Shown here: piece by piece, positions 2,731-15,789 of the stretch
Numbering within the stretch: position 1 is the first letter of the stretch
How the letters are laid out: each line of letters starts with the position of its first letter
Sequence record: MN850579.1
Reading direction: 5' to 3' (one strand)
Length of the DNA stretch: 64,000 nt
Source of the DNA: Escherichia phage mogra
Position numbers and translations under genes: made by a program
The notes under the pieces: model-generated
What the model saw: only the letters and a program-made list of their open reading frames with translations
Told to the model about the DNA's origin: nothing
Database searches by the model: none

Positions 2731-3042
2731 ATGAAAACTTATCAAGAGTTTATCGCTGAAGCTACTAAAGCCGATAAAAATTTTATTATTAACACCACCG
2801 GTCCGTTAGATGATGAATACGCTAATGCTATTATTAAGTCAATTTCTAATCAAGGCGTTGAAGTAACAAATTTCGAATATAAGAAAAATGATACTTATAT
2901 GATAATTAGTATCAAAAAAGGTTCAAAAGCCAAAATTAAATCTGCGTTTGGTGTTATGCGAGTTGACCAAATCGATAACCACGATTTTTCACAAACAGGG
3001 GTCAAACGCCAAAATACCATTTCTTCTAAAGGCATAAAATAA
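2731..3042 (+). CDS. internal protein with capsid-targeting sequence (IPI locus)
   Basis: N-terminus MKTYQEFIAEA matches the T4 internal-protein capsid targeting sequence; position after 57B. Confidence 0.7.
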   Translation: MKTYQEFIAEATKADKNFIINTTGPLDDEYANAIIKSISNQGVEVTNFEYKKNDTYMIISIKKGSKAKIKSAFGVMRVDQIDNHDFSQTGVKRQNTISSKGIK

Positions 3043-3085
3043 TTTACAACAAGATAGGACTATGTTATAGTAGTCCTATCAAAAC
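3042..3085 (+). promoter_or_regulatory. early promoter / stem-loop cassette (TAGGACTA..TAGTCCTA family)
   Basis: ATTTAC -35; inverted repeat flanking TGTTATAG. Confidence 0.5.
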
Positions 3086-3103
3086 AACCAAACGGAACCT
3101 AAA

Positions 3104-3367
3104 ATGAAAACTTTCAACGAATTCATCTCAGAATCATCTGGTGTGAAAATTAACAAAGCGGTCAATCAGGTTATTGCTGATATTCTTAATTTGTATAACA
3201 TTGACTTAACTCCGCATATCACGCTTGGTAACAAACGAAACTTTTTCATATTTGACACATCTGAACTTGATGAAAATCGGTTCAATAACATTCAACGTTT
3301 TGCGAATGATAAAGGTCTTCGACACGAGCCTGGTGGCTATAAAAAATACGCAATATATTTGAAATAA
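3104..3367 (+). CDS. internal-protein-like, variant CTS (MKTFNEFISE)
   Basis: CTS-like N-terminus; own promoter cassette upstream. Confidence 0.55.
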   Translation: MKTFNEFISESSGVKINKAVNQVIADILNLYNIDLTPHITLGNKRNFFIFDTSELDENRFNNIQRFANDKGLRHEPGGYKKYAIYLK

Positions 3368-3416
3368 AGGTATACAAGCCTATAGGGATATGTTATAGTA
3401 GTCCTATCAAAACAAA

Positions 3417-3623
3417 ATGAGTAAATGGAGAAATAAAATGAAACGCGCTGAACTGATTCGTAATGTTGCTGTAGTAATTGCTTCAATGGCTTTTAGTTTT
3501 TCGATGTTTGTAGGATTCATTTGTGGACTACTGACAACAACAGAAAATTCTATCTCATTGGTAGTAGCATTTCTAATCGGCTTAATCGCTATCGTTATGG
3601 ATAAAATTGCAAAAGGTGAGTAA
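3417..3623 (+). CDS. small membrane protein
   Basis: 68 aa, two hydrophobic segments. Confidence 0.5.
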   Translation: MSKWRNKMKRAELIRNVAVVIASMAFSFSMFVGFICGLLTTTENSISLVVAFLIGLIAIVMDKIAKGE

Positions 3624-3624
3624 A

Positions 3625-3987
3625 ATGAAATATCATGTATATGCTGATTTTGAAGCAAATCCTTCTAAAGACCCTGATTGTCGTTTGATACGCAGACCAT
3701 TTGATTCAGCAGCCCAAGCATGGGCTTGGATTAAAACTTGTACTCCTTCTTACACTTTCTTTGAAGTGGTAGATGATAACGGTGTTCTGCATCCAGAACC
3801 TACAGAAACTATTAATTTCCTTCTGTTTGCTGGTTATGACTGTTATCCTCTTGGTGGTATTGACGACCTTGTTGCTATAGGAAAAACTGTTGAAGCTCTT
3901 CGCGAAATTTATAAAAACGCGGAAGAAAATTTTGACTGGTATCATATCGTTGATGCTCATACCTTTGAAATGGTGGAACATTCATGA
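3625..3987 (+). CDS. hypothetical protein
   Basis: ATG 3625 overlapping upstream stop; 120 aa. Confidence 0.55.
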   Translation: MKYHVYADFEANPSKDPDCRLIRRPFDSAAQAWAWIKTCTPSYTFFEVVDDNGVLHPEPTETINFLLFAGYDCYPLGGIDDLVAIGKTVEALREIYKNAEENFDWYHIVDAHTFEMVEHS

Positions 3988-4274
3988 TTCTTTATGCTAA
4001 AGTATCGTCCATTGAGAACGGATATGAAAGCGACCAACGAGCAGCTAAAGCGTTAGTTGATGACTATGGTATTCTGACTATCTTTGAGGTTGAAAAGGTT
4101 TATATCGACCGTTCATCTTCACAAGTTAAATTACTCTGTGAAGACGTTAAATTTAACACAGTTAACTTTGATTTCTTTATTGAAACAGAAAAAGGCCCTC
4201 TTGAATATGATATTTTCAAGAACCCTTTGAAATTACGTTGCATTGAATATAACTACATTAATATGGTACGGTAA
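3984..4274 (+). CDS. hypothetical protein
   Basis: ATGA overlap with upstream ORF; 96 aa. Confidence 0.55.
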   Translation: MILYAKVSSIENGYESDQRAAKALVDDYGILTIFEVEKVYIDRSSSQVKLLCEDVKFNTVNFDFFIETEKGPLEYDIFKNPLKLRCIEYNYINMVR

Positions 4275-4370
4275 AACGTAATTTGCTTTAAGAATTATGT
4301 GTTATTATTAATCTACCCTCTATTACCAAAGGTGCTCCCTCAAGTGCCTTTCATAATAGAAAGTTATTTA

Positions 4371-4445
4371 GGCCCTGTAGCTCAATGGGAGAGCTGTCAG
4401 CTCATAACTGATAGGTAGCTGGATCGAAACCAGCCAGGGCCACCA
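4371..4445 (+). tRNA. tRNA, anticodon CAU (Met or lysidine-modified Ile), with encoded CCA
   Basis: Cloverleaf by hand: acceptor GGCCCTG/CAGGGCC, D-stem GCTC/GAGC, anticodon loop CTCATAA, T-stem GCTGG/CCAGC, 3-prime ACCA. Confidence 0.8.
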
Positions 4446-4545
4446 ATTCGCGGTGAGTACGCTCTTAGGTAGGTAAGTTGTTCGAATAAGGGTTAAAAGT
4501 AGAACCTACAAACGAGTAACCCTGAAACACCCAAAGCCGCATCAT

Positions 4546-4622
4546 CGAGGCATAGCTCAATTGTATAGAGCAACGGACTTCTAATCCGTAGGTTGAAGGT
4601 TAGAATCCTTCTGTCTCGACCA
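4546..4622 (+). tRNA. tRNA-Arg (anticodon UCU), with encoded CCA
   Basis: Acceptor CGAGGCA/TGTCTCG, D-stem GCTC/GAGC, anticodon stem ACGGA/TCCGT with loop CTTCTAA, T-arm GAAGG-TTAGAAT-CCTTC. Confidence 0.8.
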
Positions 4623-14064: not shown

Positions 14065-14065
14065 T

Positions 14066-14119
14066 GTTTACTTCCTCCAAGGACTTTGATACTATACATC
14101 TATCAACTACTTGGAGGAA
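14066..14119 (+). promoter_or_regulatory. early promoter inside a 10 bp perfect inverted repeat whose 3-prime arm is the denV SD
   Basis: GTTTAC 14066; arms TTCCTCCAAG 14072-14081 and CTTGGAGGAA 14110-14119. Confidence 0.55.
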
Positions 14120-14122
14120 ATT

Positions 14123-14536
14123 ATGACTCGTATCAATTTGACACTTGTTTCTGAACTGACCGACCAACATCTTATGGCTGAGTATCGTGAATTACCACGC
14201 GTATTTGGTGCAGTCCGTAAACATGTTCAAAACGGTAAACGTGTAAAGGATTTTAAAATCTCTCCAACATTTATCTTAGGCACAGGTCACGTAACATTCT
14301 TTTACGACAAACTCGAATTTTTACGTTTACGACAAATCGAGCTAATCGCTGAATGCTTGAAACGTGGTTTCAAAATCAAGGACACGACAGTCCAGGATAT
14401 TTCCGACATCCCTGCCGAATTTCGTAATAATTATGTCCCGTCTGAAGCGTCCATTGCGATAAGTCAAGCACGCTTAGATGAAAAAATTGCTCAACGTCCG
14501 ACTTGGTACAAATACTATGGTAAATCAATTTACTAA
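14123..14536 (+). CDS. denV: endonuclease V (pyrimidine dimer DNA glycosylase) DenV
   Basis: [32 protein letters not shown]; near-identical to T4 endo V. Confidence 0.93.
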
Positions 14537-14542
14537 GGAAAA

Positions 14543-14803
14543 ATGAAAATGTATCAAGAATTTATCGCTGAAGCAGATGCCAAAGGTCCTAAATTTAAAG
14601 TTAAAGCTTTCATTGGTGATGCCGAAGACTTTGGCTCATTAAAACGTAATGGGTATTCTTTCTTAGGTGGCGATGGTAAAGAAATCAACACCTATGCAAA
14701 ACGTAGTGAAATTGCTTATGTTGTAGCAAGTCCTAAAGTAGATGTTGACGATATTGGATACGATTTTAACAACTTCGGAATTATTTCTGGCGGTAAAGCT
14801 TAA
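14543..14803 (+). CDS. internal protein with CTS (MKMYQEFIAEA)
   Basis: CTS N-terminus; ipII/ipIII locus by synteny. Confidence 0.6.
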   Translation: MKMYQEFIAEADAKGPKFKVKAFIGDAEDFGSLKRNGYSFLGGDGKEINTYAKRSEIAYVVASPKVDVDDIGYDFNNFGIISGGKA

Positions 14804-14806
14804 ACG

Positions 14807-14836
14807 GTTTACGCTTAAGTATTAATATGGTATAAT
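14807..14836 (+). promoter_or_regulatory. T4-type early promoter
   Basis: GTTTAC 14807; TATAAT 14831. Confidence 0.5.
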
Positions 14837-14866
14837 TACTCTATCAAAACAAACAAGGAAACAAAA

Positions 14867-15445
14867 ATGAAAACGTATAAAGAATTTATCGCCGAGGCCT
14901 TTGCAGGAAAAGCTCAAGGCATTAATAAGGACGAGTGGAATTATCGTGGCGGAAACGGCTTTGACCCTAAAACTGCTCCACTTGAACGATATCTGGCCAC
15001 AAAAGCTTCTGATTTTAAAGCCTTCGCTTGGGAAGGACTACGCTGGCGTAACGATCTAAATATTGAAGTTGACGGACTTAAATTTGCTCATATTGAAGAT
15101 GTTGTTGCTAGTAACTTAGACGCAGCTTTTGTTAAAGCCGACAGTGACCTTCGTCGCTGGAATTTAAAACTGTTCTCTAAACAAAAAGGCCCGAAGTTTG
15201 TGCCTAAAGCAGGTAAATGGGTCATTGATAATAAATTAGCTAAAGCTGTCAACTACGCCGGTCTTGAATTTGCCAAGCATAAATCATCATGGAAAGGTCT
15301 TGATGCAATGGCTTTCCGTAAAGAATTTGCCGATGTTATGGCTAAAGGCGGCTTTAAGGCAGAAATAGATACAACTAAGGGCACGTTTAAAGACGCTAAT
15401 GTTCAGTACGCTTACGCCGTTGCTAATGCAGCCCGTAATTCCTAA
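14867..15445 (+). CDS. internal protein with CTS, IPIII-like size (192 aa)
   Basis: MKTYKEFIAEA N-terminus; Lys/Ala-rich. Confidence 0.65.
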   Translation: MKTYKEFIAEAFAGKAQGINKDEWNYRGGNGFDPKTAPLERYLATKASDFKAFAWEGLRWRNDLNIEVDGLKFAHIEDVVASNLDAAFVKADSDLRRWNLKLFSKQKGPKFVPKAGKWVIDNKLAKAVNYAGLEFAKHKSSWKGLDAMAFRKEFADVMAKGGFKAEIDTTKGTFKDANVQYAYAVANAARNS

Positions 15446-15486
15446 TAAAGCTAATACTCAGACCTATTTACATTTAAAGGAAACAT

Positions 15487-15789
15487 ATGAAAACATATCA
15501 AGAATTTATTACTGAAGCGCGAGTGAGTGCAGGTAAATTAGAAGCCGCTATAAATAAAAAGGCCCATTCATTTCATGATTTGTCCGATAAAGACCGTAAG
15601 AAACTTGTAAGCCTTTATATTGACAAAGAGCGTATTCTCGCTCTTCCTGGCGCTAATGAAGGTAAACAGGCCAAGCCTTTGAATGCTGTCGAAAAGAAAA
15701 TTGATAACTTTGCTTCTAAATTCGGTATGTCTATGGATGACCTTCAGCAAGCGGCTATCGAAGCAGCTAAAGTAATTAAAGGTAAATAA
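15487..15789 (+). CDS. internal protein with CTS (MKTYQEFITEA)
   Basis: CTS N-terminus; 100 aa. Confidence 0.65.
   Translation: MKTYQEFITEARVSAGKLEAAINKKAHSFHDLSDKDRKKLVSLYIDKERILALPGANEGKQAKPLNAVEKKIDNFASKFGMSMDDLQQAAIEAAKVIKGK

Follow-up and report, generated by a model that had tools for sequence, protein, structure and literature searches.

Escherichia phage mogra carries, within a 64,000-nucleotide stretch of sequence record MN850579.1 that is here called the window, seven open reading frames (ORFs) that begin with a common ten-residue leader of the kind found on the T4 internal proteins. These ORFs are very probably the internal-protein (ip) genes of a Mosigvirus, whose products would be packaged in the head and injected to block type IV nucleases of the host. 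By sequence the window is a Mosigvirus, an RB69/PhAPEC2-like T-even phage: it is 95–98% identical to Mosigvirus genomes, and its first 16.5 kb are 95–97% identical to those of PTE-Eco05, AV118, phiE142, Shf125875, PhAPEC2 and ChristianSchoenbein/Bas46. The phage collection that was searched contains no identical record, its best match reaching ~96% identity over 96–97% of the query.

Seven ORFs with a common leader

The seven ORFs are as follows, with lengths in amino acids (aa), isoelectric points (pI) and leaders where given, a slash marking the predicted cleavage site.

2731..3042, + strand: ORF 2731, Ip7/RB69ORF156c family; 103 aa, leader MKTYQEFIAE/A; mature protein 93 aa, pI 9.5
3104..3367, + strand: ORF 3104, Ip9 orthologue; 87 aa, leader MKTFNEFISE/S; mature protein 77 aa, pI 9.35
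5341..5805, + strand: ORF 5341, the un-annotated member; 154 aa, leader MKSYAEFLTE/Q; mature protein 144 aa, pI 9.6
13783..14064, + strand: ORF 13783, RB69ORF127c / Ip5-like family; 93 aa, S after the predicted cleavage site, second LNE at residues 13–15
14543..14803, + strand: ORF 14543, RB69ORF125c family; 86 aa, leader MKMYQEFIAE/A; begins 6 nt after denV
14867..15445, + strand: ORF 14867, IpIII orthologue; 192 aa, leader MKTYKEFIAE/A
15487..15789, + strand: ORF 15487, IpII orthologue; 100 aa, leader MKTYQEFITE/A

A six-frame scan of the full 64 kb window with the pattern MK.[YF].[ED]F[ILVM].[ED] returned exactly seven matches, all on the + strand, at 2731, 3104, 5341, 13783, 14543, 14867 and 15487, and 100 shuffles of the window returned none; the MKTYQEFIAEA-like starts listed in the first-pass annotation are therefore real and lie where it placed them. 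A relaxed seven-residue pattern recovered the identical seven ORFs and no others, with 0.24 expected. In all seven cases the match coincides with the first Met of an ORF of 86–192 aa, the preceding in-frame stop lies 2–16 codons back from the leader Met, and a GGA(A) ribosome-binding motif is found 6–10 nt upstream. The start of ORF 13783 overlaps the stop of the lysozyme gene e (ATGA); the mechanical ORF list begins this frame at TTG 13768, and databases use ATG 13783.

The leaders conform to the consensus MK(T/S/M)(Y/F)xEF(I/L)xE, in which M1, K2, E6, F7 and E10 are the same in all seven, positions 4 and 8 admit Y/F and I/L respectively, and positions 3, 5 and 9 vary; the N-terminus of T4 IpII and IpIII is MKTYQEFIAE. 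T4 genetics has identified leader residues 4 and 7 as critical for targeting and residues 8 and 10 as critical for processing by the prohead protease gp21, and the first ten residues of IpIII alone are enough to package foreign proteins in T4 (PMC9026906). The critical residues are retained in all seven ORFs (Y/F at position 4, F at 7, I/L at 8 and E at 10). Codon identity across the seven leaders is 83% at codon positions 1 and 2 and 53% at third positions, which argues that the peptide rather than the DNA is conserved, with selection acting on the peptide.

Past residue 11 or so, local alignment detects no significant pairwise similarity among the seven proteins, whose mature parts score 20–50 against one another and 390–950 against themselves, and their best-matching PHROGs are six different ones. 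Repoila and colleagues are said, in reviews that cite their 1994 work, to have described the T-even internal proteins as diverse, with the capsid targeting sequence alone in common. This sequence has also been presented as the sole common part of these diverse proteins by later authors (Rao & Black 2010). The mature parts are basic in five of the seven (pI 9.35–9.66) and near neutral in the other two (pI 6.3–6.4). Pfam and NCBIfam scans of all seven gave nothing above threshold, and PDB sequence searches with IpII, IpIII and ORF 5341 yielded no relatives.

Similar leaders occur in viral contigs of IMG/VR, where a degenerate DNA version of the pattern matched at least 120 loci; since the pattern itself selects the motif, this census is treated as a passing observation. 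Among the matches listed, 134 ORFs start with the motif, most of them within 10 codons of the preceding stop and most having T or S as the third residue, a position left free in the pattern. Many lie on environmental contigs, where the leader heads unrelated sequences, e.g., MKTYKEFMQESSLSRIKSKSDKGG... and MKTYQEFISEAKKCWPGYKKKG.... The leader tag may, judging from these starts, be used well beyond coliphages.

Gene order, families and cassettes

The gene order is 3, 1, 57A, 57B, ORFs 2731 and 3104, trna.4–.2, two tRNAs, the rnaD/rnaC homologues and ORF 5341, followed by the e.8–e.2 region, nudE, e, ORF 13783, denV, ORFs 14543, 14867 and 15487, and vs.8. The leader ORFs thus occupy three positions, namely between 57B and trna.4 (2731, 3104), after the tRNA/rnaC genes (5341), and in the e–denV–vs.8 region (13783, 14543, 14867, 15487). 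Six of the seven lie inside the variable ip loci of T-even genomes (57B–trna.4 and e/denV–vs.8). The first-pass annotation had assigned all seven to two loci, an arrangement that does not hold for ORF 5341, which stands alone at the third position directly after the rnaC homologue; T4 has merely a short non-coding gap after rnaC, with no leader ORF. The regulatory features associated with these genes are listed below; PeSL denotes a promoter/stem-loop element repeated at the borders of variable genes.

2666..2710, + strand: early-type promoter with embedded stem-loop (PeSL-like), TTTACA-N17-TACTAT; copy 1 of a 43-nt direct repeat, before ORF 2731
3043..3087, + strand: PeSL-like promoter/stem-loop, TTTACA-N17-TATAGT, 10/12 matches; 10-bp stem at 3053–3080; repeat copy 2, before ORF 3104
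3371..3415, + strand: PeSL-like promoter/stem-loop, third copy of the 43-nt repeat, which ends the Ip7-Ip9 cassette and serves the trna.4 homologue as promoter
5304..5311, + strand: AATAAATA box 30 nt ahead of ORF 5341, perhaps a variant of the T4 late promoter TATAAATA
5812..5838, + strand: hairpin plus T run (GCCCCTTCCTTACGGTTGGGGCTTTTT), closes the ORF 5341 cassette; direct repeat
14808..14836, + strand: early-type promoter for ipIII and ipII, TTTACG-N17-TATAAT, extended TG, 10/12 matches

At the first position, ORF 2731 matches phrog_2667 ('internal head protein', E=2e-38), its exact sequence is present in GenBank, where some records name it internal head protein, and it is 48% identical to 'ip7' of VR5; the RB32 annotation describes Ip7 as 'similar to RB69ORF156c'. 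ORF 3104 matches phrog_7673 ('internal head protein', E=4e-48) and is ~70% identical to Ip9 of RB15, IME08 and VR5. Its AlphaFold2 (AF2) model has an alpha/beta fold with a disordered leader (predicted local distance difference test, pLDDT, 82), and a comparison of the model with the PDB gave no match with E <0.01 or a template modelling (TM) score >0.5. The pair is bracketed by the 43-nt promoter/stem-loop repeat, which occurs at 2668, 3045 and 3373 and, in a related form, at 5888, and the Ip7-Ip9 pair of RB32 is bracketed in the same way, both genes being annotated there as 'flanked by 43 bp direct repeat'. The repeats resemble the PeSL cassettes (Arbiol 2010; Comeau 2014), whose promoter consensus in T4-like phages is TTTACW-N17-TAYWAT (PMC4122927): the window has TTTACA-N17-TA(T/C)(A/T)(G/A)T promoters with embedded stem-loops, and a promoter with a stem-loop recurs at variable-gene borders in four copies (2668, 3045, 3373, 5888). 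Unlike those of the PeSL cassettes, the stem-loops of the window have no T run on the + strand and were not scored as terminators.

The Ip9 mature domain (window 3137–3364) also occurs free of any leader, as free-standing genes of 72–74 aa, with 57% identity in Kagunavirus CR01 and 44% in Seuratvirus SHIN8. In Agtrevirus SKML-39 an Ip9-type domain makes up the last ~80 aa of a 660-aa protein, whose N-terminus, MATPSFLNFLEES, is loosely leader-like. Within the loci compared, the two leader-free genes lie at 2507–2725 and 2492–2716 and the 660-aa protein at 776–2758. A search of 1.84 billion representatives with this domain found nine clusters, of which five are without a leader and two are full-length with leader-like starts.

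In the e–denV–vs.8 region, ORF 13783 matches phrog_3499 ('internal head protein', E=1e-46) and is 48% identical to Ip5 of T2 and RB32, the latter being annotated as 'similar to RB69ORF127c'. The reference ORF127c of RB69 (RB69 locus 4923–5204) starts MKTYMNFYQNLSLNE, unlike the leader of ORF 13783; this looks like a leader with a short out-of-frame stretch, through either a sequencing error or a broken tag. ORF 14543 matches phrog_2667 (E=7e-21) and is 95% identical to a protein of RB69 that bears the RefSeq name 'internal head protein', and the ORF125c of PhAPEC2, at 38 aa, looks like an internal deletion. ORF 14867 is identical to T4 IpIII at 175 of 193 residues (91%; phrog_5341, E=6e-117), and ORF 15487 to T4 IpII at 93 of 100 (93%; phrog_7857, E=5e-55), under which name it is found in databases. 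ORF 15487 begins 41 nt after ipIII and is probably co-transcribed with it. A perfect T4 late-promoter box TATAAATA, one of two in the first 17 kb, lies within the ipII coding sequence (15549–15556, + strand).

This pair shares with T4 IpII and IpIII the leader, the lengths and the adjacent ipIII–ipII order. It differs from T4 in lying after denV and before vs.8, where T4 has the order e–ipIII–ipII–denV, and in an ipII that lacks its own promoter. Compared with T4 IPI (IPI*), the inhibitor of the CT596 GmrSD nuclease, ORFs 2731 and 3104 share the 57B–trna.4 slot and the logic of an N-terminal propeptide, packaging, injection and nuclease inhibition would be alike, whereas the IPI leader is longer and divergent (MKTFKEFTSTTTPVSTITE) and the two ORFs are unrelated to IPI. 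No IPI orthologue (95 aa, MKTFKEFTS... propeptide) is present in the window, where the relaxed leader scan, able to match the IPI start, returned no extra ORF; the relatives PhAPEC2, Bas46 and RB69, by contrast, all carry IPI. Among the proteins Ip4–Ip10 (Repoila et al. 1994; annotations of RB15, K3, T2 and RB32), ORF 3104 corresponds to Ip9, ORF 2731 is Ip7-like and ORF 13783 Ip5-like. The window versions of Ip7 and Ip5 are nevertheless diverged alleles, 48% identical to the named proteins, and the Ip5-like gene lies after gene e, whereas Ip5 of RB32 lies in the ipI slot.

Early-type promoters lie ahead of ORFs 2731, 3104 and 14867 only, and only ORF 5341 has hairpin-plus-T-run terminators on both sides, the upstream one being the 3' end of the rnaC homologue. 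The statement of the first-pass annotation that most of the genes have their own promoter and terminator thus stands for the promoters of three genes and falls for those of the other four, and as regards terminators it is true of ORF 5341 alone.

ORF 5341 is the member of the set that has no internal-protein name in the records listed. It matches phrog_2280 ('unknown function', E=1e-53) and 511 phage records, and is 'hypothetical' in every annotated record among the matches listed; every named member of its 90% cluster is likewise hypothetical, as is its homologue RB32ORF133c, even though the same RB32 curators named Ip4, Ip5, Ip7 and Ip9. Its leader, MKSYAEFLTE, retains all four critical positions, and the form MK(S/T)Y.(E/Q)FL.E is kept across homologues 74–79% identical; those of Tequatrovirus start MKSYAQFLNE(A/V)VLNE, with a second x-N-E site. 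The family was found in T-even phages only. The AF2 model (pLDDT 71) is all-helical, with a three-helix domain at its N-terminus, a linker of Pro/Ala/Lys and a C-terminal part that is long and helical, and it matched only its own family in BFVD, with no informative structural neighbour. The absence of informative matches for ORFs 5341 and 3104 means that their folds give no functional clue.

In PhAPEC2 and Bas46 the 154-aa gene adjoins a leader-bearing 187-aa gene, which also falls in phrog_2280 (both E ~1e-53). A relationship between the two proteins is plausible; BLASTP aligns the leader only, and profile comparison gives a weak 26-residue C-terminal match with a probability of 18%. The AATAAATA variant ahead of ORF 5341 recurs upstream of gene e (13266), and its role as a late promoter of ORF 5341 is only a suggestion from the sequence. 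The GGTTGGGGCTTTTT of the hairpin at 5812..5838 repeats the terminator upstream of ORF 5341.

Further leader ORFs of relatives are labelled hypothetical, namely the RB69ORF124c type (phrog_3966, 'unknown function') and RB69ORF123c (MKTYQEFIAAV...); ORF 5341 is therefore not the sole un-annotated member of its class. They lie at the following places.

locus of a relative (L001), 16333–16647: hypothetical leader ORF
RB69 locus, 3848–4120 and 3450–3779: hypothetical leader ORFs

The sets of leader genes at the three positions differ among close relatives, as follows.

T4: 57B–trna.4, IPI; after tRNA/rnaC, none; after e, IpIII, IpII
PhAPEC2: 57B–trna.4, IPI; after tRNA/rnaC, 154-aa, 187-aa; after e, ORF127c, truncated ORF125c, IpIII
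Bas46: 57B–trna.4, IPI; after tRNA/rnaC, 154-aa, 187-aa; after e, ORF127c, ORF125c, ORF124c-type, IpIII
RB69: 57B–trna.4, ORF156c, IPI; after tRNA/rnaC, truncated 187-aa type; after e, ORF127c, ORF125c, ORF124c, ORF123c
This window: 57B–trna.4, ORF156c-type, Ip9; after tRNA/rnaC, 154-aa only; after e, ORF127c, ORF125c, IpIII, IpII

The frequency of the individual genes also varies, with ~26 records each at ≥95% identity for ORFs 2731 and 3104, 71 for 5341, 146 for 14543 and 232 for 13783. An Ip7-Ip9 fusion protein, the 38-aa ORF125c and frameshifted homologues of ORF 5341 occur among relatives and look, from their sequences, like products of recombination or decay; such fused, short and frameshifted copies indicate that the ip genes are dispensable. 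The ip genes behave as exchangeable cassettes bounded by the promoter/stem-loop repeats and by the common leader-coding sequence, and cassette exchange would explain the different ip sets of close relatives.

Proposed packaging, injection and inhibition of type IV nucleases

Under the T4-type mechanism, each of the seven proteins would be made with a ten-residue N-terminal capsid targeting sequence, through which it would bind to the scaffolding core of the assembling prohead. The protease gp21 would cut after Glu10 (I/L-x-E motif), and the mature protein would stay in the head with the DNA. Injected together with the DNA, it would act before any phage gene expression, binding and blocking a specific host modification-dependent (type IV) nuclease that attacks DNA with sugar-modified cytosine. 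T-even phages carry the gp21 prohead protease and the gp22 scaffolding core, which recognise the leader.

What can be read directly from the window and its relatives is the leader motif, the orthology of the genes, the repeats of the cassettes and the variation in gene content. The exact sequences of all seven proteins are in public databases, where six are named internal head protein, IpII or IpIII in some records, and six of the seven belong to PHROGs of internal head or virion proteins or to the expert-named Ip7, Ip9 and Ip5-like proteins. Of the T4 proteins Ip1, Ip2 and Ip3, each inhibits a different GmrSD type IV nuclease and none protects against the target of another (Silas 2025, PMC12373910); together with these names and the near-identity of IpIII and IpII to their T4 counterparts, this upholds the first-pass view of the set as T4-type internal proteins and candidate injected anti-defence proteins. 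At least ten Ips are known, and the genes of 'the two Ip loci' have been proposed to all target GmrSD variants (Silas et al. 2025, PMC12373910). ORFs 15487 and 14867 are full-length orthologues of T4 IpII and IpIII; by orthology, IpII should block enzymes of the BrxU/GmrSD-ECOR21 type, and IpIII two-gene enzymes of the GmrSD-ECOR17 type. A further parallel is provided by Bas37_0260, a leader-bearing protein encoded at the ipI locus that inhibits McrBC (HIDEN-SEQ preprint, 2025): like the genes at the first position of the window, its gene lies in the ipI slot of a T-even phage beside a second non-IPI gene, and it is needed against a type IV enzyme.

The first-pass annotation further held that these proteins are matched to the DNA modification of this phage. 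The segment 37541–64000 is 97.8% identical to a Bas46 segment annotated with DNA polymerase, a gene 42 homologue and UDP-arabinose biosynthesis genes, the latter two kinds aligning at about 48560–53660. The gene 42 homologue is annotated as dCMP hydroxymethylase in Bas46, and the Mosigvirus enzyme appears as 5-hydroxy-dCMP synthase in recent papers. Because homologues of gene 42 and of the UDP-arabinose genes are present, mogra DNA is expected to contain arabinosylated cytosine; T4, which glucosylates its hydroxymethylcytosine (hmC), carries IpII and IpIII that are nearly identical to those of mogra. BrxU, a GmrSD-family enzyme, also cleaves the 5-arabinosyl-dC DNA of a Mosigvirus, and the published specificity is for nuclease variants. 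For these reasons it seems to be the variants of the nuclease, rather than the modification of the DNA, to which the proteins are matched, and this part of the earlier proposal is not sustained.

Several points weigh against the mechanism as applied to the whole set. Targeting, cleavage and injection in this phage would follow by analogy from work on T4, and the genes for gp21 and gp22 lie outside the window. Ip4–Ip10, when tried against 15 GmrSD groups, gave no reproducible target (PMC12373910), so the anti-restriction role of five of the seven proteins is assigned by analogy, and for the Ip9-type and 154-aa proteins the predicted folds brought no informative match. Leader genes have early-type, not late, promoters, and the late-promoter box TATAAATA is absent upstream of all seven; T4 ipI, ipII and ipIII, however, are arranged alike, with early-type promoters, stem-loops and no TATAAATA box, so its absence is no argument against a location in the head. 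We infer from the analogy that the five non-T4 proteins may be packaged and serve as anti-restriction factors.

For ORF 5341, packaging as an internal protein is likely. Its homologue g140 in Yersinia phage fD1 proved to be particle-associated when analysed with liquid chromatography–tandem mass spectrometry (LC-MS/MS), and all three leader-bearing proteins of the region (g129, g140 and g146) were detected in fD1 virions by this method. The same proteome also flags DenV, lysozyme and NudE as particle-associated and is in that sense not specific, so its support for packaging is modest.

A wider proposal, for and against which the balance is even, is that phrog_2280 (ORF 5341, RB32ORF133c, fD1 g140 and the 187-aa RB69ORF149c type) represents a third ip locus after tRNA/rnaC, encoding an injected protein that inhibits a defence system with no link so far to T-even phages, and that the leader is a more broadly portable address tag. 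The latter idea is suggested by the leader-free Ip9 mature domain of Kagunavirus and Seuratvirus siphoviruses and by the leader-like starts on environmental contigs.

Three other explanations were weighed. The proteins may be injected effectors with targets other than type IV enzymes, either other defences (BREX-linked, Druantia, toxin-antitoxin) or host physiology. This would suit the failure of Ip4–Ip10 to yield a target among the 15 GmrSD groups, the presence of Ip9 mature-domain homologues in Kagunavirus, Seuratvirus and Agtrevirus phages, and predicted folds (ORFs 3104 and 5341) of which neither is functionally informative; it is unlikely, as every characterised leader protein (Ip1, Ip2, Ip3 and Bas37_0260) inhibits a type IV enzyme.

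A mainly physical role, in which abundant basic proteins are packaged to neutralise DNA charge and aid condensation or ejection, with anti-defence activity exceptional, is decidedly improbable. T4 heads do contain ~1000 internal protein molecules, with lysines contacting DNA phosphates (PMC3012670), and the basic mature parts of five of the seven proteins and the lack of an identified nuclease target for Ip4–Ip10 agree with such a role. Two mature parts are near neutral, however, each of the three T4 Ips has a specific nuclease as its target, copies with frameshifts or truncations are tolerated, and the sets differ between phages whose flanks are 95–97% identical, a pattern more in keeping with an arms race than with a structural need.

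That some of the proteins, above all ORF 5341, are not packaged but act inside the cell, their common 5' end having been spread by recombination or aiding translation initiation, is very improbable: the leader-coding DNA and upstream repeats are recombination substrates, the RB32 curators gave the ORF 5341 homologue no Ip name, and the Ip9 mature domain works leader-free as a free-standing siphovirus gene, but leader amino acids are conserved while third codon positions drift, the ORF 5341 family retains the leader across its diverged homologues, g140 was found in purified fD1 particles, and ten residues alone package foreign proteins in T4. None of these alternatives accounts better for the T4 genetics and the variation in gene content than the T4-type mechanism, which is the most likely explanation.

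The observation of the first-pass annotation is thus real and its interpretation sound, and both belong to published knowledge; the novelty is limited to a single family member that lacks annotation and to where it lies. As the principle and most of the genes have been described already, the main value of the finding is to confirm that raw sequence suffices to read the motif. It bears on practice in that the host encounters the internal proteins before any other phage protein, so that their repertoire helps to decide which strains a therapeutic T-even phage infects. The label of candidate internal protein could be given to the proteins of phrog_2280, and probably to those of phrog_3966, whose starts also carry the leader, and both groups could join panels for testing against type IV nucleases, where Ip4–Ip10 are still without targets.

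Neighbouring genes and minor observations

The region immediately upstream of ORF 5341 encodes stable RNAs.

4986..5296, + strand: rnaD and rnaC homologues, 92% identical to the T4 stable RNAs rnaD+rnaC (species 2 and 1)

The 3' end of the rnaC homologue is a terminator hairpin (5272–5288) with a T run, just upstream of ORF 5341. The region contains a tRNA-like T-arm (GGTTCGAGTCCCGG) and a terminal hairpin; a search of 4986–5296 against Rfam matched no family, and no RNA gene is annotated at this position in Bas46 or PhAPEC2. The mechanical ORFs 4912–5034 and 5062–5190 overlie the two homologues and are probably spurious. Of the two neighbouring tRNA genes, that at 4371–4445 is called tRNA-Met (CAT) by ARAGORN, and the homologous CAU tRNA is annotated in Bas46, RB32 and T4 as a tRNA-Ile reading ATA. 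PhAPEC2 has a third tRNA between the counterparts of these two.

Two groups of small proteins in the segment before gene e share C-terminal motifs. At 8945–9739, in the RB69ORF139c/137c/136c region, three tandem small ORFs of 101, 90 and 65 aa end in a common WV(S/A)SSxxC and look like paralogues. A second motif, (N/R)FI(K/T)ECR, is found at the C-termini of hydrophobic small proteins of the e.2–e.4 region (8589–8948, 11098–11403, 12085–12582 and perhaps 8185–8610), and it suggests a paralogous family. For two of these proteins, the annotation of the PhAPEC2 counterpart notes a similarity to predicted membrane proteins of T4.

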